Virus record (IMG/VR): IMGVR_UViG_2531839233_000017
Direction: 5' to 3' (one strand)
DNA from: a virus
Lineage: Duplodnaviria; Heunggongvirae; Uroviricota; Caudoviricetes
Length of the DNA stretch: 10,353 nucleotides
The notes below the pieces were generated by a model. The model saw nothing but the letters and a program-made list of their open reading frames with translations, was not told where the DNA came from and ran no database searches. This document shows, in pieces, positions 1 to 10,353 of the stretch. How positions within the stretch are numbered: the stretch's first letter is position 1; the number at the start of each line of letters is the position of its first letter. Position numbers and translations under genes: made by a program.

Positions 1-129
1 AGTTCTGCTACCACTCATATCACCAAAAAAGCAGATAAAAAGAAAAGCACGGCAACCACCAAAAAGACCCAGAAAACAGCGAAAAAAGCCGCCAGTAAAA
101 GTACGACCAAAAGCAAAACAGACCAGTAA
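1..129 (+). CDS. 3' end of an upstream CDS (partial, start outside window); Lys/Thr/Ala-rich low-complexity C-terminal tail
   Basis: Frame 1 is open from base 1 to TAA at 127-129 (…TKKADKKKSTATTKKTQKTAKKAASKSTTKSKTDQ*). The stop is followed by an AAGGG Shine-Dalgarno and the ATG at 140. Frame 2 is also open across this A-rich stretch, so the frame assignment is uncertain. Confidence 0.3.
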   Translation, partial: SSATTHITKKADKKKSTATTKKTQKTAKKAASKSTTKSKTDQ

Positions 130-139
130 GGGCACACCG

Positions 140-475
140 ATGACGCTGGCGCGTATGGCGGTATCGTTGCCATGTAGTCAGGCGCAGGATGGGCAGGCGA
201 CGTTATGGCTATCGGTCATCGCATTTGGTAAGCAGGCCGACTTCCTGGCTAAACATCAAAAAGGCGACGTTGCCAGCGTATCCGGCACGATGCAGGTCAG
301 CCAGTGGACCGGACAGAACGGGGAAACGCGGCAGGGTTATCAGGTTATTGCAGACAGCGTAATCAGTGCCCGTGCGGCACGTCCTGGCGGGAACAGACGC
401 AAAACCACAGGCACACAGGGTAATCAGCCACCAGCGGGAGGCGATGACCCTTACGGTGACGGTATTCCGTTCTGA
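140..475 (+). CDS. SSB-like protein with a short N-terminus (partial OB-fold, Gly/Pro/Gln-rich linker, acidic C-terminal tip ending DGIPF)
   Basis: ATG at 140 preceded by AAGGG at 7 nt. The central segment ATLWLSVIAFGKQADFLAKHQKGDVASVSGTMQVSQWTGQNGETRQGYQV aligns by eye with the second half of the E. coli SSB OB-fold (W-x-V-x-FGK … KG … WTDQSG). The C-terminus GGDDPYGDGIPF resembles the SSB acidic tip (DDDIPF). The first ~50 residues of a canonical SSB are absent. Confidence 0.55.
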   Translation: MTLARMAVSLPCSQAQDGQATLWLSVIAFGKQADFLAKHQKGDVASVSGTMQVSQWTGQNGETRQGYQVIADSVISARAARPGGNRRKTTGTQGNQPPAGGDDPYGDGIPF

Positions 476-485
476 GGGGGTGGCG

Positions 486-758
486 ATGGTACATGACCGC
501 ATAGCGGAAGAACTCGAGGCGAAAGGCTTTTACCGGAGGGCGGCGGCGCGATGGGGTGAAGTCATGCTGCTGGTGGAGACAGACAAGGAACGGCATCAGG
601 TTACGATGCGACGGCTGGAATGTTCCAGGAAGGCACAGAAGCCACCGGAGCCGCCGGATAACTTCGGAGACCTGAGAAAGGCAGTCGATCGCACTTATGC
701 TGAAATGGGTATAGATGGTGTAAGCGATGAAATATGGCGTAATTACCCAGACAGCTAA
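486..758 (+). CDS. PerC-family-like small transcriptional regulator (90 aa)
   Basis: ATG at 486 lies 5 nt after GAGGGGG. The N-terminal core MVHDRIAEELEAKGFYRRAAARWGEVM matches my recollection of the PerC/Pch family signature (AE-LE-G-RRAA-RW-EV). The longer track ORF from 366 overlaps the SSB-like gene and lacks an RBS. Confidence 0.5.
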   Translation: MVHDRIAEELEAKGFYRRAAARWGEVMLLVETDKERHQVTMRRLECSRKAQKPPEPPDNFGDLRKAVDRTYAEMGIDGVSDEIWRNYPDS

Positions 759-763
759 TCAAC

Positions 764-787
764 AGCCGGAGAAATCCGGCTTTTTTT
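764..787 (+). terminator. Rho-independent terminator after the PerC-like gene
   Basis: Hairpin AGCCGGAG-AAAT-CCGGCT followed by a run of seven T, directly after the stop at 758. Confidence 0.6.
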
Positions 788-882
788 GCACCAGTTGAAA
801 CGGTATGGCGCATTACCGGGTTTTCGTCACGGTCAGGCATAGTTACTATCTGAAACAAACAGACACAACAGAGGAAAAAACA

Positions 883-1107
883 ATGCCGATGAAATTTGAT
901 GAGATATTAAAACAGCGTGATAAATACCATGCTGACAACATGGAGACGATGAGCATCAATGATTACCGCGCATTCCTGGAGACGGGCGCACTGATTGAAA
1001 AGGATCAGCATGGTTTTGTGAGATGTGCTCTGTCCGGTGAAATGCTGGCGGTAAATCCTGAACAGATAGATGCATTGATAGAATTTCTGAAAGGGATCAG
1101 GGACTGA
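883..1107 (+). CDS. hypothetical protein (74 aa)
   Basis: ATG at 883 preceded by GAGGAAAAAACA (AGAGGA Shine-Dalgarno). Sequence MPMKFDEILKQRDKYHADNMETMSINDYRAFLETGALIEKDQHGF… has no motif I recognise. The track ORF from 805 has no RBS. Confidence 0.5.
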   Translation: MPMKFDEILKQRDKYHADNMETMSINDYRAFLETGALIEKDQHGFVRCALSGEMLAVNPEQIDALIEFLKGIRD

Positions 1108-1117
1108 GCACGCATAC

Positions 1118-1140
1118 AGCCGGAGCAATCCGGCTTTTTG
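1118..1140 (+). terminator. Rho-independent terminator after the 74-aa gene (near-duplicate of 764-787)
   Basis: Hairpin AGCCGGAG-CAAT-CCGGCT followed by TTTTTG. Stem is identical to the terminator at 764-787. Confidence 0.6.
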
Positions 1141-1156
1141 TCATTTTTTGTAAATT

Positions 1157-1187
1157 ATTTGTTCGTGGTTGTTCCACGTTGTTCACT
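1157..1187 (+). promoter_or_regulatory. Three helically phased TTGTTC hexamers (10-bp register) upstream of the capsid operon; candidate operator or activator site, possibly overlapping a weak sigma70 promoter
   Basis: TTGTTC at 1159, 1169 and 1179 (TTGTTCGTGG TTGTTCCACG TTGTTCACTG). The 15-mer TTGTTCCACGTTGTT recurs at 8754-8768. A possible -35 TTGTTC (1179-1184) and -10 TATTTT (1201-1206) sit 16 bp apart. Confidence 0.4.
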
Positions 1188-1261
1188 GACAGGATCGGCA
1201 TATTTTACCCGAACTGAATCATGAGTATTCTCGCCCGTGGTGCCAGGACGCTGGGGCCACT

Positions 1262-1307
1262 TTCCCGCCTGTTAATGTGCTCGCCAATATTCATTACCAG
1301 GCGGGAA
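1262..1307 (+). promoter_or_regulatory. Long inverted repeat in the capsid-operon leader (10 to 11-bp perfect stem, about 26-nt loop)
   Basis: TTCCCGCCTG (1262-1271) is the exact reverse complement of CAGGCGGGAA (1298-1307); flanking T1261/A1308 extend the stem to 11 bp. Confidence 0.4.
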
Positions 1308-1361
1308 AACGATCGGTGCGATTGCTGATTTCCTTATGAAAAACGGTTGAGTTTTTGCCGC

Positions 1362-1399
1362 GTCCTGGAGTTCCTTACTTAACCCCAGGACTTTTTTTT
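1362..1399 (+). promoter_or_regulatory. Terminator-like hairpin plus T8 immediately before the capsid start codon; its 3' arm contains the only Shine-Dalgarno-like sequence
   Basis: GTCCTGG (1362-1368) pairs with CCAGGAC (1385-1391) across a 16-nt loop, followed by TTTTTTTT (1392-1399) and then ATG at 1400. AGGA at 1387-1390 lies inside the stem, 9 nt from the ATG. Confidence 0.45.
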
Positions 1400-2557
1400 A
1401 TGCCGAGAATAATCGAATTACGCCAGCAGAAAACCGCCATTAAAAATCAGATGCGCGACATGCTGGAGAACGCGGAAAAAGAAAACCGCAGCCTTAACGA
1501 TGCAGAGGGCGCAAAATTTGACGAATTACGCGCTAAAGCTGAATCCCTCGATAAAGACATTTCCCGCCTTGAAGCCATTGCAGACGAAGAGCGCAGCAAG
1601 CCAGGTAAAAGCAGCCAGACCACTGACCCGGCAGAACTCCGCAACTACATCCTGACAGGTGAAACCCGCGCATTAAGTACAGGCGTTCCCGCTGATGGTG
1701 GTTATACCGTTATCCCCGAACTGAACACCGAAATCATGCGAATGCTGACGGATGAATCCACCATGCGCCGCATCTGTACCGTGAAGAAAATCAGCAGCAA
1801 CGAGTTTAAGCAGCTTGTTTCCGCTGGCGGTGCGACCGTTAACCACGGTGAAGAGGGTAAGACACGCGAACAGACCAGCACCCCGCAGATTAACGAGGTG
1901 AGCATTAAGCTGTATCCGGTCTATGCGTACCCGCGCACCACACAGGAAATCGTGGATTTTTCCGATGTGGACATCCTTTCATGGCTGACGGGTGAGATTG
2001 GCGACACCTTCACGGAAACCGAAGAAAGCGATCTGGTTGTGGGCGACGGTGACAAAAAAGCAAAAGGTTTTTTATCCGTACCCCGTGCAGAGAAGAACGA
2101 CAAAGAGCGTGATTTTGGTACGTTGCAGGTAATTAAACCTTCCGAATCTCTGGCGTGGACATCTGCGGACCCGCTGATCGACCTGAAATTTGCATTACGT
2201 AAAAAATACCGCAAAAACGCGGTCTGGGTGGTTAACTCCACGACGGCGGCAAAACTTCAGAAGGTGAAGAACGCGAACGGTGATTACATCTGGCGCGACC
2301 GTTTACAGGCGGGTGATCCTGATACGTTGCTGGGCCTTCCGGTCGAATATCTGGAGTTTATGCCTGATAACGTTATTGCCCTGGGTGACTTCAAACGCGG
2401 TTACTACATTGTTGATCACGAAACAGGTGTTCGCACCAGACCGGACAACCTCACAGAGCCGGGTTTCATCAAAATTTTCACGCAGAAATATTTAGGCGGT
2501 GGCGTGGTGGATTCGAACGCGATCAAGATTCTGGAACTGCCACAGGACGACGATTAA
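1400..2557 (+). CDS. Major capsid protein, HK97 fold, with N-terminal coiled-coil delta/scaffolding domain
   Basis: 385-aa ORF. The N-terminus ELRQQKTAIKNQMRDMLENAEKENRSLNDAEGAKFDELRAKAESLDKDISRLEAIADEE is a typical HK97-family delta domain; the remainder has the usual HK97-family capsid length and composition. ATG 1400 is preferred over the track's TTG 1355 because it sits after the leader hairpin and gives a canonical N-terminus. Confidence 0.9.
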   Translation: MPRIIELRQQKTAIKNQMRDMLENAEKENRSLNDAEGAKFDELRAKAESLDKDISRLEAIADEERSKPGKSSQTTDPAELRNYILTGETRALSTGVPADGGYTVIPELNTEIMRMLTDESTMRRICTVKKISSNEFKQLVSAGGATVNHGEEGKTREQTSTPQINEVSIKLYPVYAYPRTTQEIVDFSDVDILSWLTGEIGDTFTETEESDLVVGDGDKKAKGFLSVPRAEKNDKERDFGTLQVIKPSESLAWTSADPLIDLKFALRKKYRKNAVWVVNSTTAAKLQKVKNANGDYIWRDRLQAGDPDTLLGLPVEYLEFMPDNVIALGDFKRGYYIVDHETGVRTRPDNLTEPGFIKIFTQKYLGGGVVDSNAIKILELPQDDD

Positions 2558-2567
2558 CAGCATACAG

Positions 2568-2596
2568 AAGGGGCTTAAAAGCCCCTTTAGTGTTTT
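2568..2596 (+). terminator. Intrinsic terminator or attenuator between the capsid and protease genes
   Basis: Hairpin AAGGGGC-TTAAAA-GCCCCTT (2568-2587) followed by TAGTGTTTT. Confidence 0.5.
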
Positions 2597-2611
2597 ATGG
2601 GTGAAAAAATT

Positions 2612-3169
2612 ATGAAGAGTATGGAAATCCGGTCATCGGAAATCACCACCAGCGCCAGCAACACGCTTACAGGCTACGTTGTTCGCTGGGATAACCTTTC
2701 AGAGCTGCTATGGGGGGAGTTTTACGAAAAATTCCAGCGGGGAGCGTTTACTGAATGGCTTGCGGCGGGTAATGACGTTCGCGGCCTGTATGAGCATGAC
2801 CACAGCATGTTACTGGGGCGCACCCGTTCCGGCACGCTGAAACTGGAAGAGGACGAAACAGGGTTACGCTTTGAACTGACCCCACCGGATACCAGTACAG
2901 GGCGCGACGTTATCGAACTGGTTAAGCGTGGGGACATCTCGGGGATGAGCTTTGGCTTTCGCTCCCGTAAGGATGTATGGGATACCACAACAGATCCATG
3001 CGTGCGCACCGTGCTGGTGGCGGAACTGTACGAAATTACCGTTACATCGGTACCGGCTTACCCCGATTCCGGCGTGGAGCTGGCCCGCCGTTCCCTGTAT
3101 GAGCAGCACCCCGAAAAAATGCCGCGTGCGGATAATCGCCGCTGGTGGGCGGATTTAGCGGGGGTGTGA
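2612..3169 (+). CDS. Prohead maturation protease, HK97 family (S78/U35-like)
   Basis: Motifs YEHDHS (candidate catalytic His) and ISGMSFGF (candidate catalytic Ser), with typical length. ATG 2612 has GGGTGA 7 nt upstream; the track start 2597 abuts the terminator T-run with no RBS. Confidence 0.88.
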   Translation: MKSMEIRSSEITTSASNTLTGYVVRWDNLSELLWGEFYEKFQRGAFTEWLAAGNDVRGLYEHDHSMLLGRTRSGTLKLEEDETGLRFELTPPDTSTGRDVIELVKRGDISGMSFGFRSRKDVWDTTTDPCVRTVLVAELYEITVTSVPAYPDSGVELARRSLYEQHPEKMPRADNRRWWADLAGV

Positions 3170-3170
3170 T

Positions 3171-4382
3171 ATGTGGCCTTTCAGAAGAAAAAAAGAGCAG
3201 CGCAGCATGACGCTTGATGAGTTTATGGCGCTGGCTGGCACATCGAACACGGGGGCGGGTGAGTACGTATCATCGGGGACAGCGGAATCACTGCCCGCCG
3301 TCATGAACGCCGTGACGGTCATCTCTGAGGCGGTGGCTACCATGCCGTGTTACCTGTACCTGGTACGCAATGAGAAGGGGAAGGAGGCCCGCGAGTGGCT
3401 TGATTCTCATCCGGTCGATCATATCCTCAACGAGCGCCCGAACGCGTGGCAGACGCCCTATCAGTTTAAGCGAATGATGGTCCGCCACTGCCTGTTAAAC
3501 GGTAATGCTTATGCGGTGATTCAGTGGGGGCGTGATGGTTTTCCGGTGGCTTTGCACCCTTACCCGCCGCAGTCGGTGAACGTGGAGCAGACAGGCGAAC
3601 ACAACTGGCGCTATTGCATCACTGACGCCTACACCGGAAACACCCACAACTATTTACCGTGGGAAGTACTTCACCTTCGTTACTCCACGGATGACGGCTT
3701 TATGGGGCGCTCACCTGTAACCATCTGCCGCGAATCGCTGGGGCTTGGGCTGGCCCAACAACGCCACGGCGCGAGCGTGATGCGTGATGGCATGATGGCG
3801 GCAGGGGTTATCACGTCAGGCGAATGGCTGGACGGCGTGAAGGGCAAACAGGCATTAGCCGCACTGGAACGCTACAAAGGGGCCAGAAACGCCGGAAAAA
3901 CGCCCATCCTTGAAGGGGGTATGAGCTATCAGCAGCTGGGCATGAGTAATCAGGATGCTGAATGGCTGGCCTCCCGTCGCTTTACCATTGAAGACATCGC
4001 CCGAATGTTCAACGTCTCGCCGATTTTTTTGCAGGAATACAGCAACAGCACCTACAGCAATTTCAGCGAGGCAAGCCGCGCATTTCTCACCATGACGATG
4101 CGCCCGTGGCTGGCGAACTTTGAGCAGCAGATAAAAAACGCCCTGCTGGTGGCCTCGCCTGTACCTGGTATCCGGTATCAGGTGGAGTTTGACAGCGCGG
4201 ACCTGTTACGGGCCACACCTGGCGAACGCTTTGCCACCTATGAGCGCGGCATCAAATCCGGCGTTATGTGCCCGAACGAAGCCCGCGAACGTGAAGGACT
4301 GTCACCGCGTGATGGTGGTGATGAGTTCAGCCAGGCATGGAAACAGGAAGTAAAAATCAGCGAGGGAGAAAAACCGGAATGA
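3171..4382 (+). CDS. Portal protein, HK97 family
   Basis: 403-aa ORF of typical HK97-family portal size, sitting in the head module. The start overlaps the protease stop (TGAtATG) and has a GGGGG Shine-Dalgarno. Confidence 0.88.
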   Translation: MWPFRRKKEQRSMTLDEFMALAGTSNTGAGEYVSSGTAESLPAVMNAVTVISEAVATMPCYLYLVRNEKGKEAREWLDSHPVDHILNERPNAWQTPYQFKRMMVRHCLLNGNAYAVIQWGRDGFPVALHPYPPQSVNVEQTGEHNWRYCITDAYTGNTHNYLPWEVLHLRYSTDDGFMGRSPVTICRESLGLGLAQQRHGASVMRDGMMAAGVITSGEWLDGVKGKQALAALERYKGARNAGKTPILEGGMSYQQLGMSNQDAEWLASRRFTIEDIARMFNVSPIFLQEYSNSTYSNFSEASRAFLTMTMRPWLANFEQQIKNALLVASPVPGIRYQVEFDSADLLRATPGERFATYERGIKSGVMCPNEAREREGLSPRDGGDEFSQAWKQEVKISEGEKPE

Positions 4383-4717
4383 ACATAGGGCGACTGCGTG
4401 ACAGGATAACGATTCAGACCCTGAAACAGACCAGAGCCATGACGGGCGAAATACTCGAAACGTGGGAGGACGGTCACACACTCTGGGCAAGCGTGAACAT
4501 GATCAGCAGCAAGGAGGCCATTTCATCGGGCGCAGAGCTGGCGATTGGTACCGTAAGGATCTGGATACGGTACCGGAAGGACATCAACGCCACCAGCCGG
4601 ATAAAGGTCAGTACGGGGCCGCTGGCGGGGCGTGTACTGAATATCATCGGGCAGCCGTTGCCGGATGTCGCCAGGACACGCCTTGAAATTCTTTGTCGTG
4701 AGGGCGCGGAAAAATGA
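4379..4717 (+). CDS. Head closure / head-tail adaptor protein (Phage_H_T_join-like)
   Basis: MNIGRLRDRITIQ … ETW … LWASV … IRYRKDI … LEILCRE matches the head-closure family pattern (GRLRxRITIQ, ETW, IRYR, LELLC). ATG 4379 overlaps the portal stop (ATGA) and has GAGGGAG 10 nt upstream. Confidence 0.8.
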   Translation: MNIGRLRDRITIQTLKQTRAMTGEILETWEDGHTLWASVNMISSKEAISSGAELAIGTVRIWIRYRKDINATSRIKVSTGPLAGRVLNIIGQPLPDVARTRLEILCREGAEK

Positions 4718-5010
4718 CAGAAGAACTTATCACCCTGGAAGAAGTGAAACTCCATTGCCGCATCGATGGCGACGAGGAAGACCAGTTAATCAGCGGATAC
4801 ATTGCCGCATCGCTTGAGGCGTGCCAGATACACATAGGCAGGCGCTTTGATGACGGGCTGGAGTTCACGCCAGCCATAAAGATTGGCTGCATGATGTTTA
4901 TCGCTCACCTGTATGAAAATCGCCAGATTGTCGCGGATAACGCAAAAACACGCGTACCCATGACGATTGGTGCACTCTGGACGGCTTACCGTGATGTGGG
5001 GGTGTACTGA
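4714..5010 (+). CDS. gp6-like head-tail connector protein (Phage_connect_1-like)
   Basis: LITLEEVKLHCRIDGDEEDQLISGYIAAS … HLYENR is the characteristic signature. ATGA overlap with the previous gene; GAGGG RBS. Confidence 0.8.
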   Translation: MTEELITLEEVKLHCRIDGDEEDQLISGYIAASLEACQIHIGRRFDDGLEFTPAIKIGCMMFIAHLYENRQIVADNAKTRVPMTIGALWTAYRDVGVY

Positions 5011-5450
5011 TGCCGTGGCAACCATTAAGACGATGCACAGAACCAGGCTGTAACAGGCGCGTGAAGTCCGGCAAGTGTGAGGAGCACAGGCGGGCGGCAT
5101 GGCGTGCAGAGGATGCCAGACGAGGACACCGCCGCGCGCGTGGGTACTCCAGACAGTGGGACAAATACCGCGCCATGTATCTGAGTAAAAACCCGTTATG
5201 CGTGCGATGCCTTGAGAAGGGGATATATACGCCCGCCGTGGTGGTGGATCACATTATCCCCATCGATGGCGGTGATGATGTTCTCTTCTGGCCCGAATGG
5301 AACCATCAACCATTGTGTCAGGCGTGCCATAACCAGAAAACGAAATGGCTTGATCCGGCAACAAAAAGCAAGCGTGCCGCAGGTGGATTTCGTGAAGAGG
5401 AAGAACGGGCCGCTAACCGCAATAACTGGATGTATGACGCTGATGAATGA
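5010..5450 (+). CDS. HNH endonuclease (terminase-associated)
   Basis: Cys/His motif CVRCLEKG … VDHIIPIDGGDD … NHQPLCQACHNQKT. Start overlaps the previous stop (TGATG). It sits directly upstream of terS/terL, as in HK97-type cos phages. Confidence 0.88.
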   Translation: MPWQPLRRCTEPGCNRRVKSGKCEEHRRAAWRAEDARRGHRRARGYSRQWDKYRAMYLSKNPLCVRCLEKGIYTPAVVVDHIIPIDGGDDVLFWPEWNHQPLCQACHNQKTKWLDPATKSKRAAGGFREEEERAANRNNWMYDADE

Positions 5451-5616
5451 GCGGGAACAAAACCGCCTTATCCGTGGACTTATAAGGCAGCGTGACGCAT
5501 GGAAGACACAGGAAACAGGGCATAAAGATAAAGCGTCAGGACGCGCAGAACGCATCACAGCGAAGCGATTAACCGACCGTGACCGCGAGGTTATGGAATG
5601 TTTCCGCAATCGCTGA
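5443..5616 (+). CDS. hypothetical small basic protein (about 57 aa); uncertain
   Basis: ATG at 5443 (or 5434) overlaps the HNH stop. Arg/Lys-rich (MNEREQNRLIRGLIRQRDAWKTQETGHKDKASGRAERITAKRLTDRDREVMECFRNR). Weak RBS, no recognisable motif. The long track ORF from 5212 is a shadow of the HNH gene. Confidence 0.3.
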   Translation: MNEREQNRLIRGLIRQRDAWKTQETGHKDKASGRAERITAKRLTDRDREVMECFRNR

Positions 5617-5628
5617 TGAGGCTGTATG

Positions 5629-5672
5629 ACGGGGTGGGGGGCGTTTTCAGGACAAACCCGACCCCGCCGGGC
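5629..5672. other. Candidate cos / packaging-initiation region (G-rich imperfect inverted repeat upstream of terS)
   Basis: GACGGGGTGGGGGGCG (5629-5643) and CCCGACCCCGCCGGGC (5657-5672) are partially complementary G/C blocks in the otherwise AT-rich intergenic region between the HNH-side genes and terS. Confidence 0.25.
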
Positions 5673-5739
5673 ACCGAACGCCTCCTCAAATTTTTATGCA
5701 CGGGAATTTTTTGAAAAATAATCTGGCGAAAAAATAAGC

Positions 5740-6096
5740 ATGGCAAGACCACCGAAAGCCCCCGCCTACCTGGATGATATCGCCGTGAAGCAGTGGCGGG
5801 AAAAATCGCGGCAGCTTGCGGAACGGGGTGACCTGACTCCCGCCGACTGGAGTAATCTGGAACTGTATTGCGTCAATTACTCGATATACCGGAAAGCCGT
5901 CGCAGACCTTGCGGCGCGCGGGTTCAGCATTGTTAACAGTCAGGGCGGAGAGAGCAGAAACCCCGCATTAAGCGCGAAATCCGACGCGGAAAGAGTGATG
6001 ATAAAAATGGCCTCCTTGCTCGGTTTTGACCCGATAAGCCGCCGTAAAAATCCACCGGAAACAGAAGAAGAGGACGAGCTTGACCGCCTGGAATAA
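5740..6096 (+). CDS. Terminase small subunit, P27 family
   Basis: N-terminus MARPPKAP; internal LELYCVNYSIYRKA … GESRNPAL … GFDPISRRK matches the P27-family TerS pattern. Directly precedes terL. Confidence 0.85.
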   Translation: MARPPKAPAYLDDIAVKQWREKSRQLAERGDLTPADWSNLELYCVNYSIYRKAVADLAARGFSIVNSQGGESRNPALSAKSDAERVMIKMASLLGFDPISRRKNPPETEEEDELDRLE

Positions 6097-7741
6097 GTAC
6101 GCAGAAGACGTAAAAACGGGCAAAATTCCGGCCTGTAAACGGTTAAAACAGGCTGTTAAACGGTACTTTTCGGACCTTAAAAGCCCCCTTTACACGTTCG
6201 ATCGTGAGGTTGTGGAGCGGTTTATTGCCTTTTCCAGGGTGTGCCCGCACGTAAAAGGACCGATGCGTGGCAGACCCATTGAGCTGGAGCCGTGGCAGCA
6301 GTTCGCCTTTGCGTGCATCCTCGGCTTTAAGGTTAAGGCCACCGGACGGCGCAAATACACGAGCGCCTTTATCGAAGTGCCGCGCAAAAATGCGAAATCC
6401 ACGACCGCCGCGATTCTGGCTAACTGGTTTTTGATTATGGAGAACGGTCAGCAGGATATCTACACCGCAGCGGTGAGCCGTGACCAGGCGCGGATCGTCT
6501 TTGATGATGCGCGTCAGATGTGCCTTTTATCCCGACCGTTACGCAGGCGGGTGAATATTCAGGCGCATAAGGTGATACACCCGAAAAGCAACAGCCTGTT
6601 AAAGCCGCTGGCAGCAAAAGCGGCAACCATTGAAGGTACAAACCCGAGTCTTGCCATTGTGGATGAATATCACCTGCACCCTGACAACGGGGTTTATTCC
6701 GCGCTTGAACTGGGAATGGGGGCGCGTCCGGAGGGGCTGTTATTTGCCATCACCACATCGGGGAGCAACGTTGTTTCAGCCTGTAAACAACACTACGACT
6801 ATTGCTGCCAGATACTGGATGGTGAAGAGGTGAACGAATCCATGTTCGTGCTGATTTACGAGCTGGATGATGAAAGCGAGGTTGACGATCCGGCGATGTG
6901 GATAAAGGCGAATCCCAATATCGATGTTTCCGTCGATCGTGAAAAACTGGCCTCAACCATCCAGAAAGCGCGGGGAATACCGTCGCAGTGGGTGGAGATG
7001 ATGACAAAGCGATTTAATATCTGGTGCCAGGGGGCTACCCCGTGGATGGGTAACGGCGCATGGGCTGAGTGTGCCGGAACGTTCACGGAGGAAGATTTAC
7101 ACGGCCAGGAGTGTTACGCGGGGCTGGATTTATCATCAACCAGCGATATTTCCAGCGTATGCTATGCCTTTCCGGTCGGTAAAACCATTATGCTGATTTC
7201 CCGTCATTATCTGCCGGAGTTCCAGCTACAGAACCCCGCCAATAAAAACCGCGCTGTCTATCGTCAGTGGGCTAAAGCGGGCTGGATACGCACAACGCCT
7301 GGCGACTGCATTGATTACGACCGGATCAGAGATGACATCATGCAGGACGCGGAGAAATTTCATATCAGGCTGGTGGGCTTTGATACGTGGAACGCCACGC
7401 ATCTCAGAACGCAATTACAGGGGGCAGGTTTTGAGGTGGAGCCGTTCCCGCAAACCTACCTCAGATTCAGTCCGGCGGCGAAATCGTTCGAAGTTTTTGT
7501 TAACCGCAGGGTGATTGTGCATCGTGGCGATCCGGTGTTGTCCTGGTCGATGAGTAACGTCGTGATGCAGAGTGACGCGAACGCCAATATCAAGCCGAAC
7601 AAGAAAAAATCACCGAACAAGATAGACCCGAGCGTGGCGGCACTGATGGCGTTTGGTACATTCCAGGCAGAGCATGAGGATTTTGCTTTTGATATAAGCG
7701 ACAGCCACCGCCAGAAACTGGAAGAATTCAGCGGGGTGTAA
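6080..7741 (+). CDS. Terminase large subunit (ATPase/nuclease)
   Basis: 553 aa. Walker A-like VPRKNAKST, Walker B-like LAIVDEYH, C-terminal nuclease-type region. Probable TTG start at 6080 (AGGA 5 nt upstream) overlaps the terS 3' end by 17 nt. Confidence 0.92.
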   Translation: MTAWNKYAEDVKTGKIPACKRLKQAVKRYFSDLKSPLYTFDREVVERFIAFSRVCPHVKGPMRGRPIELEPWQQFAFACILGFKVKATGRRKYTSAFIEVPRKNAKSTTAAILANWFLIMENGQQDIYTAAVSRDQARIVFDDARQMCLLSRPLRRRVNIQAHKVIHPKSNSLLKPLAAKAATIEGTNPSLAIVDEYHLHPDNGVYSALELGMGARPEGLLFAITTSGSNVVSACKQHYDYCCQILDGEEVNESMFVLIYELDDESEVDDPAMWIKANPNIDVSVDREKLASTIQKARGIPSQWVEMMTKRFNIWCQGATPWMGNGAWAECAGTFTEEDLHGQECYAGLDLSSTSDISSVCYAFPVGKTIMLISRHYLPEFQLQNPANKNRAVYRQWAKAGWIRTTPGDCIDYDRIRDDIMQDAEKFHIRLVGFDTWNATHLRTQLQGAGFEVEPFPQTYLRFSPAAKSFEVFVNRRVIVHRGDPVLSWSMSNVVMQSDANANIKPNKKKSPNKIDPSVAALMAFGTFQAEHEDFAFDISDSHRQKLEEFSGV

Positions 7742-7754
7742 TGAGGTCAGCAGC

Positions 7755-8036
7755 ATGACAGAAGCCGAACTACTGGGATTAATCCGCCGCGTATCTGGAA
7801 TCAGCCAGCAGGCTGACGAACAGACCACGCAGCCGGACAGCGTGACAGCCGAAAATTATGCGCGTGTTGTTGCTGAGGTGATGTGCCGTGATGGTATCCA
7901 GCTTAATGATGTTGATATGCGCAACATACGGATCCGCGTTCTTGAAATGCTGGCCTACAATCGCCGCGTTGAACTGCATCGGGAGAAAGAAAAAATAACG
8001 TACCACTGGAAGAAGCCGGAGCGGTTGCGGCGGTAA
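7755..8036 (+). CDS. hypothetical protein (93 aa), last gene of the island-side operon
   Basis: ATG 7755 with GAGG 8 nt upstream, 14 nt after the terL stop. No recognisable motif. The stop codon lies inside the first copy of the GGCGGTAACT repeat. Confidence 0.5.
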   Translation: MTEAELLGLIRRVSGISQQADEQTTQPDSVTAENYARVVAEVMCRDGIQLNDVDMRNIRIRVLEMLAYNRRVELHREKEKITYHWKKPERLRR

Positions 8037-8455
8037 CTGGTTGATATTTTCGAAATTCGCCAGCGGCGAACATCGGGGAAACCAGCCTAACCCGTTGATT
8101 CTTTCGGAAACAGCCATTGGCGGAATCCGGCGCGGTAACTTGCTGATATTCCCGATAACGCAAAATTGCGTGGCTGAATGAACATTATGATTACTTATGA
8201 TTACGCAGATGATTAAGGCCTAAACCGTTGATTCTTCCCAATTTCCACAGACTGTGGAAGTTGGCGCGGTAACTTACTGAGATTAAAGCAAAGCGCAAAA
8301 TTGCGCCGACTACATCCCTCACATGCGAAATTTTCGCAGTTTAATTACTCGCCAGTTTGATCGTTAACCCGCTGATATTTTCGGGAACCTCAATTTGAGG
8401 AAGTCGGCGCGGTAACTGGTTGATACTTTCGACCTCCTCAATTTGAGGAGGTCGG
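8027..8455. repeat. Array of four composite repeat units: 22-bp direct repeat GGCGCGGTAACT-NNN-TGATATT, each followed 4 to 9 bp later by a different palindrome, with a second direct repeat CCGTTGATTCTT about 37 bp upstream of three of them
   Basis: Core copies at 8029-8048, 8129-8150, 8263-8284 and 8405-8426. Palindromes at 8056-8070 (TTCGCC-AGC-GGCGAA), 8158-8171 (ACGCAA-AA-TTGCGT), 8293-8308 (GCGCAA-AA-TTGCGC) and 8430-8454 (CGACCTCCTCAA-T-TTGAGGAGGTCG). Second motif at 8092-8103, 8225-8236 and variant 8369-8383. Confidence 0.8.
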
Positions 8456-8743
8456 GGCACAGAAAAACAACGAATATGTTGTTTTTGGGAATGGTCATAA
8501 TGACCACGCAGACCATCAAGGCAACCACAACGAACATCGTTACGGTTGGAGCTTTTACCCCACTGGGGGAAAGGTATTACGATAATCATAACACCTACCG
8601 AACAGGTAAAACCCACCAGCCTGATTAACAGTTAACCGGAAAAAAAATCCGGTAGCCCCGTTATGGGGATCCCCATATCGACATTAACGCCCCTCATGAA
8701 TTGGTGCGCTTCCCCCTGGAAAGATTACCCGCCTGTATATTTC

Positions 8744-8769
8744 TTGTGTCTATTTGTTCCACGTTGTTT
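8744..8769 (+). promoter_or_regulatory. Second set of three helically phased TTGT(T/G)(C/T) hexamers, sharing a 15-mer with the capsid-operon upstream site
   Basis: TTGTGT at 8744, TTGTTC at 8754, TTGTTT at 8764 (10-bp register). TTGTTCCACGTTGTT at 8754-8768 is identical to 1169-1183. Confidence 0.4.
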
Positions 8770-8786
8770 CATACAGTGCACCGAAC

Positions 8787-8810
8787 GGTGTAGTTAATGG
8801 TGTAGTCAAT
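8787..8810 (+). repeat. Tandem 12-bp direct repeat (GGTGTAGTTAAT / GGTGTAGTCAAT)
   Basis: Two adjacent 12-mers differing at one position, about 85 bp from the phoQ stop. Confidence 0.5.
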
Positions 8811-8892
8811 TTGCTGTTTTTAGCACTTTTTGCAGTGTGGGTTGTTTAATTAAATCAATGGGTTGCCTTGCTGTGGTGATAAAAGGACATAT

Positions 8893-10353
8893 TTATTCAT
8901 CTTTCGGCGTAGAATGCTGGCGACCAAAAATCACCTCCATCCGCGCACCGCCAAGCATGCTCTCTCCGGCGACGATTTTACCCTCATATTGCTTGGTGAT
9001 TTCGCGGGCTACCGCCAGCCCCACACCTTGCCCAGGGCGTAAAGTATCAACCCGTTGACCACGGTCGAAAATGACCTCTCGCTTGCTTAATGGAATACCG
9101 GGGCCATCATCCTCGACCACAATATAGAGATGCTCGTCGGTTTGCCTTGCAGAAATTTCGACAAACTCGAGGCAATATTTACAGGCATTATCCAGTACAT
9201 TGCCCATCACCTCGACAAAATCGTTCTGCTCACCGACAAAGCTGATCTCTGGCGAAATATCGAGAGAGATATTGACCCCTTTGCGTTGATACACTTTGTT
9301 CAGCGCCGAGGTGAGATTGTCCAGCAGTGGGGCGACCGGATGCAGCTCGCGGCTGAGCAATGTCCCGCCGTGCATACTGGCACGATGCAGGTAGTAGCCA
9401 ATTTGCTGTGAAATGCGGCTGATTTGCTCCAGCATTACCGGTTCAGCATCACTGACGCTCATCTTTTCACTACGTAGAGAACGCAGCGTACTTTGCAGCA
9501 CCGCCAGTGGCGTTTTCAGACTATGGGTCAGGTCGGTGAGCGTTGTACGATATTTGTCGTAACGTTCGCGTTCACTTTTTAACAATCGGTTCAGGTTTCG
9601 TACCAGACTGGTCAGTTCTCGCGTTGTGGCTGGATTGAGCAATTCGCGGTTATGTTCTTCCAGTTCGCGGACTTCTTTTGCCAGGGCTTCGATGGGGCGT
9701 AAACTCCACCAGGCGGCGACCCACAGCAGCGGGATCACTAACAGCAGATTGGCTGAGAGCACATAGATAAACCAGCTCCAGACCATATAGGAACTTTTTA
9801 GCTCCACCGGAATGGTATCCACCACCACAATGGTTAACTTTGGCATCCGCGATGTTGCCGGGTAGACGTTTACCGCCACCGAGTGGGTCATCTCCGCGTC
9901 GTCATCATCTTCCCGCACTTCCTGCAACTGTTGCTGTATCGAATGATCTCCACTCAGCAAGAGGCTGGTATCGTTAACATCCGCTTCAATTTCATGAAAA
10001 CCATTCGATTTCAGCCAGTCAGGCTGGATCATCTTCATCAGCCAGGGCACGTCACGTTGCGCCCATAAAAGCTGCCCGTTCTCATCATAAATTAGCGTCA
10101 TGGTGGGGCTTTGCTTGTCGATATTTTCGGGTAACTCGACATGCAACTTATTGTTTTCCCACTTCGCAAGGGTATAGAACAGATTGCTCTCGCCACGTAA
10201 CAGCCGAAACGTAGTTTTATCGAAACTGACGCTATAACCGATCAGCGCGACCATTCCGTAGGCAAGCGAAAGCACCAGTACTACCGCTGCCGTTGCCAAC
10301 AGAAAACGTACCCGCAGCGAGAGCGGGAAAAAAAGACGCAGTAATTTTTTCAT
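8893..10353 (-). CDS. phoQ: Sensor histidine kinase PhoQ of the PhoPQ two-component system
   Basis: 486-aa ORF, full length. [33 protein letters not shown]…, periplasmic acidic patch [12 protein letters not shown]-box [16 protein letters not shown]-binding G-boxes DDGPGIP and GQGVGLAVA. Matches E. coli PhoQ from memory. The start codon is at the very end of the window. Confidence 0.97.

Follow-up and report, generated by a model that had tools for sequence, protein, structure and literature searches.

Arrays of TTGTTC-like hexamers, repeated every 10 bp, are present in both attachment-site arms of the capsid-forming island EcCIEDL933, between its int and alpA genes and upstream of its capsid gene. 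They are almost certainly real and under selection, and comparison of related islands suggests that they probably serve as operators of AlpA, a winged-helix directionality factor and activator.

The DNA stretch analyzed here (referred to as the window; 10,353 nucleotides) is 100% identical from position 115 to 10353 to E. coli O157:H7 EDL933 and related strains, and comprises the right two-thirds of EcCIEDL933 plus phoQ. In the annotated record, EcCIEDL933 is a 15.4-kb island with roxA on one side and phoQ on the other, and its gene order is int, alpA, primase, SSB, PerC-like, 74-aa gene, HK97-type capsid, protease, portal, connectors, HNH, and small and large terminase. It is the prototype capsid-forming phage-inducible chromosomal island (10.1101/2022.09.08.507074); satellites of this kind were recently described and are a widespread gene-transfer route. 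Features outside the window are given in coordinates of the 28-kb locus holding the island (L001; window position = L001 position − 8886). Related islands were drawn from E. coli genomes, from other genera, and from IMG/VR (three AlpA alleles as queries). An Rfam search of the whole island at gathering thresholds returned no matches.

Two further elements of the window were noted. Upstream of the capsid region, a PerC-family gene is followed by a "trigger factor" pseudogene fragment (486–758). This PerC-family gene is accessory and no component of a capsid switch, because it is missing from several otherwise similar islands. Between the last open reading frame and the attR arm (8031–8457), a unit of about 48 nt (CGGTAACnnGnTGATAnTTTCG followed by a small hairpin) is present in four to six copies; units resembling it were also seen in classical islands (L018) and in L003, and they are possibly linked to packaging.

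Phased hexamer arrays

The 15-mer TTGTTCCACGTTGTT occurs exactly at 1169–1183 and 8754–8768, as the initial annotation of the sequence had reported, and its three hexamers spaced 10 bp apart at each of these sites were likewise confirmed (starts at 1159/1169/1179 and 8744/8754/8764). By arithmetic, about 0.05–0.1 exact 15-mer pairs are expected in 10.3 kb, which makes the shared 15-mer merely mildly unlikely. The non-randomness is carried by the phased triplets instead. The pattern TTGTKY-N4-TTGTKY-N4-TTGTKY was found at only two places in the window and in none of 200 dinucleotide-preserving shuffles. The simpler pattern TTGT-N6-TTGT-N6-TTGT matched five times in the 28-kb locus (two of the matches overlapping), always within the island, and in none of 100 shuffles.

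Arrays with at least three units are located at four places of the island: one in each att arm, one between int and alpA, and one ahead of the capsid gene (Table 1). Directionality factors bind head-to-tail to tandem repeats that are one helical turn apart, and phage 186 Apl requires a minimum of three adjacent operators (PMC7498355). With three to five units each at a spacing of 10 bp (occasionally 11 bp), the arrays at the four places conform to this direct-repeat pattern of directionality-factor operators. The search of the full island and its relatives that the initial annotation had proposed thus uncovered further arrays, and 10-bp phased arrays are conserved in related islands. At least three (three to six) phased TTGT units were present in the int-alpA spacer of 68 of the 69 loci with AlpA allele A, where several sequence families of the array can be told apart by the bases between the units. 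The two-unit pair within the 74-aa gene region is weak and may be due to chance.

Table 1 Hexamer arrays and neighboring features of EcCIEDL933. Positions are those of the window unless L001 is indicated.
Feature	Position	Strand	Description or basis
Two-unit pair at the 74-aa gene, overlapping its ribosome-binding region	853–868	−	TTGTGT + TTGTTT; conserved in L004 and L017, two close relatives
Intrinsic terminator of the upstream gene	~1116–1139	+	Ends just before the array
In-phase extra units before the capsid-upstream array	1138–1143; 1148–1153	+	TTGTCA; TTGTAA; phased TTGT scan
Invariant box TTTTGTAAATTA	1146–1157	+	Comparison of capsid-forming islands
Capsid-upstream array	1159–1184	+	TTGTTC at 1159, 1169, and 1179; 10-bp phase
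Putative capsid-operon promoter	1204–1231	+	−35 TTTACC 1204–1209, 16-nt spacer, −10 TATTCT 1226–1231
Leader hairpin, inferred 5' end of the capsid transcript	1237–1260	+	9 pairs, 4 with compensatory changes between island lineages
attR-arm array	8744–8769	+	TTGTGT 8744, TTGTTC 8754, TTGTTT 8764
Doubled 12-mer GGTGTAGTTAAT GGTGTAGTCAAT	8787–8810	+	Candidate integrase arm-type sites; second half of the 75-nt module
att core identity block GGACATATTT	8885–8894		Alignment of K-12 attB with EDL933 attL and attR; right boundary of the island
Array upstream of int (attL arm)	L001 2402–2437		Phased TTGT scan
int-alpA spacer array	L001 3760–3812	−	Five units, TTGCTG counted as a degenerate fourth
Two-unit pair just upstream of alpA	L001 4027–4042		Phased TTGT scan

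Hexamers and doubled 12-mers in the attachment-site arms

Alignment of the K-12 attB with the attL and attR of EDL933 yielded GG(A/G)CATATTT as the att core, and in empty-site genomes the match to the left flank stops at L001 2319. The core overlaps the phoQ stop codon, and the 3' end of phoQ is rebuilt from island sequence on integration. Since the core identity block maps to 8885–8894, the 8744 array lies inside the island at a distance of 116–141 bp from the core, and the distance of about 125 bp to the phoQ stop given in the initial annotation is correct. We consider it very likely that this copy belongs to the recombination arm. Two other roles proposed for it found no backing: no promoter-like site was detected near the 8744 copy that could account for transcription into phoQ, and no evidence pointed to a function of the island-end copy in packaging.

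The 8744 array forms the first half of a 75-nt module (8737–8811), which is repeated with 76% identity upstream of int (L001 2395–2469). A doubled 12-mer follows the array in both modules (attL-arm copy at L001 2445–2468), and in a search of the island the 12-mer was restricted to the two att arms. The gap between the end of the array and the doubled 12-mer is 17 bp in the attR arm and 7 bp in the attL arm; the occurrence on both arms is unusual. Relative to the core of the reconstructed attP, the centers of the doubled 12-mers map to about −91 and +142 and those of the hexamer arrays to about −133 and +105. The attR-arm arrays are conserved in related islands.

According to the initial annotation, the phased hexamers could bind either a cooperative regulator or an integrase. 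If the P4-family integrase bound them as arm-type sites through its N-terminal domain, it would also gain control of the capsid operon by way of the capsid-upstream copy. Such a role would fit the location of arrays on both attP arms, roughly symmetric about the core, and the Arm-DNA-bind_3 domain of the integrase. However, the hexamers do not follow the integrase. In one group of islands, the integrase shares 96% identity with the EDL933 enzyme after residue 100, compared with only 78–84% within residues 1–100, where the segment SVRHSTSGLLTW is replaced by SVKYLTSGKLTW. These islands contain GGTGTAGTCACT in place of GGTGTAGTTAAT on both arms, whereas their hexamer arrays are identical to those of EDL933. 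Because the 12-mer changes with the N-terminal domain of the integrase while the hexamers stay the same, we propose the doubled 12-mer, and not the hexamer, as the candidate arm-type site. TTGTTC arrays are furthermore common to three integrase types with different 12-mers, and the doubled motifs of more distant integrases have other sequences (TGTGTGGTCAGT, TGTATAAACAY, GGTRTATCACTC, and GGTATCCTAKA). The annotated arm repeats of phage P4 are tandem 12-mer pairs at the same positions, and hexamer arrays also exist outside the attP arms in internal spacers, where the integrase has no known role. Hence, an arm-site function of the hexamers is very unlikely. Of the two binders originally considered, the regulator is favored by the conservation of the arrays amid diverged flanks and by a unit flavor that follows the AlpA allele, and the part concerning integrase arm sites would apply to the 12-mer.

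In one integrase clade (L159, positions 2690–2830; L147, L160, and L186), three TTGTTCC repeats with a 9-bp period upstream of int face three inverted GGAACAAC repeats across an AT-rich stretch. L159 also contains a P4-like doubled motif (two copies of TGGGGCAC, ~2597–2620) about 80 bp further upstream.

Small terminases and replication initiators also bind phased direct repeats, and the island has its own small terminase of the P27 family. The arrays could accordingly be packaging sites recognized by the small terminase, or replication iterons, but we regard this as the most improbable of the alternatives. The arrays flank the recombination core and not terS, and they persist in classical islands that lack this terminase (L018). 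In HK97-like layouts, cos is located between the HNH and terS genes. Separate iterons follow the primase gene (AATAACCCGCA; TGGTTCA repeats in L172). The GGTTCAGT repeats of L172, which had been considered as AlpA-type arrays, were likewise recognized as origin iterons.

The region upstream of the capsid gene

Near-identical terminators of the form ACAGCCGGAG(A/C)AATCCGGCTTTTT at 762–785 and ~1116–1139 flank the 74-aa gene and thereby set it apart as a small transcription unit of its own directly before the capsid promoter region. As the second terminator ends at 1139, the capsid operon needs its own promoter. A promoter-like element, TTTACC-N16-TATTCT, is located between the box and the leader hairpin; it is weak, with 8 of 12 matches and one short of the scan threshold. 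The homologous position in the related island L002 reads TTTACA-N16-TATGTT and was picked up by the promoter scan. Transcription would then start near 1238, and the three hexamers would be centered at about −75, −65, and −55, a usual place for an upstream activator.

The leader (1237–1399) is highly structured, with a 5' hairpin, a long hairpin of variable sequence, and a hairpin with a run of eight T directly before the ATG (~1364–1399). It could be a cis-acting RNA element for the termination or translation of the capsid operon.

All capsid-forming islands examined share a common architecture, in which the box is followed by three units of about 10 bp. The box is identical or near-identical whichever unit type lies downstream, and it may be an extra repeat unit or a site for a factor common to all capsid-forming islands. 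A GTTC-type capsid-upstream array was found in 39 of 39 capsid-forming islands examined with AlpA-A or AlpA-B. This array is confined to HK97-type capsid modules and is absent where the same AlpA is combined with a lambda-type late module, as in the classical islands.

The island family is strongly mosaic, and the 1159 array and the array between int and alpA (TTGTTCGTGGTTGTTCCAC(G/A)TTGT) have almost the same sequence. The capsid-upstream copy might thus be a functionless relic of arm or spacer sequence that was moved by module recombination. This is highly improbable given the conservation pattern. In relatives integrated at yifB and hpt, the diverged capsid-upstream spacer can be aligned over only 50–60 bp, which correspond to the box and the array. 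The units are preserved while the bases between them change. The spacing to the promoter-like element and the leader hairpin is constant within 2 nt across 12 lineages, with 89–91 nt between box and leader hairpin in 12 diverse islands.

Capsid-forming islands produce DNA-filled tail-less capsids without a helper phage (10.1101/2025.02.11.637232), and the capsid promoter therefore needs no phage-encoded activator. That the 1159 copy mediates AlpA-dependent activation of the capsid operon is, in our assessment, an evenly balanced possibility.

AlpA as the candidate binding protein and comparison with known systems

AlpA is a protein of 62 aa, whose gene comes next after int and is not part of the window. 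It matches the Pfam family Phage_AlpA (PF05930, E = 5e-17), PHROG families named "excisionase and transcriptional regulator", and by sequence also PDB entry 8c3t, an AlpA-family protein; a literature search for this entry retrieved no relevant paper. In EcCIEDL933, an alpA mutant showed no induction and no transfer (10.1101/2022.09.08.507074).

The comparison of islands points to AlpA in two ways. First, within the allele-A group only the integrase and AlpA stay constant, as the arrays do. The other shared small proteins (DUF4222, Icd-like, and others) vary between 29 and 100% identity in this group, and many islands with arm arrays lack the PerC-like regulator and the 74-aa protein. Because the integrase and AlpA alone are constant and the hexamers are decoupled from the integrase, AlpA is the best candidate. 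Second, the sequence of the repeat unit co-varies with the factor (AlpA-A, AlpA-B, AlpA-C, or HTH_17), an association to which shared ancestry may partly contribute. AlpA allele B is 69% identical to allele A. The base following TTGTTC is C in 69% of the units of AlpA-A islands and G in 85% of those of AlpA-B islands. Consistently, the arm units are TTGTTCG in allele-B islands and TTGTTCC or TTGTTTC in allele-A islands; the allele-B islands possess two different integrase types, and TTGTTCG arm units occur with both. TGTTCATC units are present in a subset of the AlpA-C islands. In islands encoding an HTH_17 protein, which is an unrelated protein of the excisionase family, the capsid-upstream array was of the TAC type in two of two cases, and phased TAC units were also found beside the doubled motifs of the arms.

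Upstream of the capsid gene, the association of unit type and regulator type is imperfect and could partly stem from shared module ancestry. The capsid-upstream arrays of the AlpA-C islands were of the GTTC type in 5, of the TAC type in 16, and of other or intermediate types in 26 cases. Capsid-upstream TACCC arrays from Rosenbergiella, Citrobacter, and Erwinia, which had been considered as a case of simple co-variation, were downgraded to an association, as the same type occurs in AlpA-C islands together with intermediates. H140, considered as an example of the same integrase with a different alpA, proved to be a deleted remnant.

Several observations count against AlpA. The arrays are present on both arms, whereas a directionality factor typically binds to a single arm. 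In the int-alpA spacer, the array runs in the opposite direction and is separated from alpA by about 270 bp. Five AlpA-C islands have a GTTC-type capsid array, and the TAC-type capsid arrays of many AlpA-C islands resemble their own TGTTCATC units only loosely. Moreover, int and alpA are adjacent and often co-inherited, and their separation rests on few recombinant lineages. No TTGTTC array was found upstream of alpA in AlpA-B islands, which suggests that a different input controls alpA there. In the AlpA-B island L017, two GTGATATCAC palindromes and a terminator-like hairpin directly precede the alpA start (4646–4740), and in the AlpA-B island L018 three phased AATATC repeats are located before alpA (17581–17610).

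The arrays might also be bound by a different protein, such as the PerC-like regulator, the 74-aa protein, the DUF4222 protein, another protein of the island, or a host nucleoid or response-regulator protein for phased TGTT repeats. This would be in line with the imperfect match between capsid-upstream type and AlpA type, with the invariant box, which suggests a factor common to all capsid-forming islands, and with the position of the 74-aa gene directly upstream in most capsid-forming islands. We nevertheless consider it unlikely, since the flavor of the units tracks the AlpA allele. In addition, PhoP or ArcA repeats have an 11-bp period, which fits neither the 10-bp period nor the TTGTTC unit of the arrays. 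The PerC-like regulator was rejected because L002, L003, and L018 have arrays but no PerC-like gene. The presence and absence of the 74-aa protein across islands argues against it, too; its homologue search returned close relatives only, and its AlphaFold model (pLDDT 62) was too poor to use.

With AlpA as the binding protein, the following model can be proposed. AlpA protomers would bind cooperatively and head-to-tail to at least three direct repeats one helical turn apart. At the att arms, where the array lies just upstream of the paired 12-mers, AlpA would bend the DNA and help the integrase to build the excisive complex, and the array upstream of alpA would mediate the known autoactivation of AlpA. 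For EcCICFT073, it was reported that AlpA does not activate the int promoter (PMC6092414), and the attL-arm array is thus not a transcriptional site in that island. From the array about 20 bp before the −35 element of a weak sigma-70-type promoter, AlpA would turn on the capsid and packaging operon, so that excision and capsid production would begin together as AlpA builds up. In this model, the binding of AlpA to the arrays, its activating effect on the capsid promoter, and the position of the transcription start are inferred. The suggestion of the initial annotation that one and the same protein could link structural-gene expression to what happens at the end of the island is favored by the comparative evidence, with arrays recurring at both att arms, before alpA, and before the capsid operon. 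A more far-reaching version would make the 62-aa AlpA a filament-forming directionality factor and a master switch, which turns on the capsid operon directly, organizes both attP arms, and couples excision to capsid production; this version is tentative and somewhat doubtful. If true, leaky AlpA expression would explain the helper-free formation of DNA-filled tail-less capsids, and the allele-specific operator flavors (C or G after TTGTTC) would shield islands residing in the same host from one another.

The literature searched is silent on how the capsid and packaging operon is switched on and on the target of AlpA, and no publication on AlpA operators in capsid-forming satellites was found. 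The arrays provide a concrete operator prediction that is open to mutagenesis, and they offer a possible link between excision and capsid production. As marks of the island ends and of the late promoter, the array sites may also be of use for annotation and for engineering delivery particles based on satellites.

The principle of a dual-purpose excisionase is already well known from P2, 186, and P4. Apl, Cox, and Vis also control promoters far from att through similar repeats (PMC7498355). One of the closest parallels is P2 Cox, a small winged-helix protein that binds several direct repeats about one turn apart and functions in excision as well as at promoters away from att (PMC3936717). Cox boxes are located in the P2 attP, at the P2 Pc promoter, and at the P4 PLL promoter, upstream of which three 10-bp repeats are visible; from boxes located upstream, Cox turns on the late promoter of P4 (PMC3936717). 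Cox differs in its unit (TTAAAG(N)CA versus TTGTTC in the island) and belongs to a sequence family other than that of AlpA. The Cox targets reviewed contain at least six boxes, whose orientation differs from target to target, whereas the island has three to five units per site and arrays on both arms. Apl of phage 186 is likewise a dual excisionase and transcription regulator, whose direct repeats at 10–11 bp lie at att and in a distant promoter region (PMC7498355). However, Apl represses pR and pL, in contrast to the activation proposed for AlpA, and it is a sequence outlier among the directionality factors.

In phage P4, the late promoters depend on Delta/Ogr and not on Vis alone. Vis has been named as the P4 homologue of AlpA, and excision requires it (PMC6092414); the P4 record labels it as "excisionase and transcriptional regulator". 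The P4 attP resembles that of the island: tandem pairs of 12-bp "attP arm sequence repeats" are annotated to the left and right of its core, one pair lying just upstream of int, and the integrases belong to the same family; the P4 arm repeat differs in being of the TGGGGGCA type. A doubled motif (tgTGTATTGCa, twice) has been described for the attP of helper-embedded phage-inducible chromosomal islands as a tandem 12-bp repeat, which occurs once per arm in the same orientation at about −81 and +132 (PMC10111431). This is similar to the positions of about −91 and +142 from the attP center in EcCIEDL933. The motif was stated only for helper-embedded islands, and integrase or AlpA was left open as its binder (PMC10111431). 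Here, integrase sites and directionality-factor sites in attP could be separated, a question that PMC10111431 left open for the related motif: doubled motifs of a similar kind are present in several other integrase clades and change with the N-terminal domain of the integrase, and a separate hexamer array lies beside the doubled motif in these islands.
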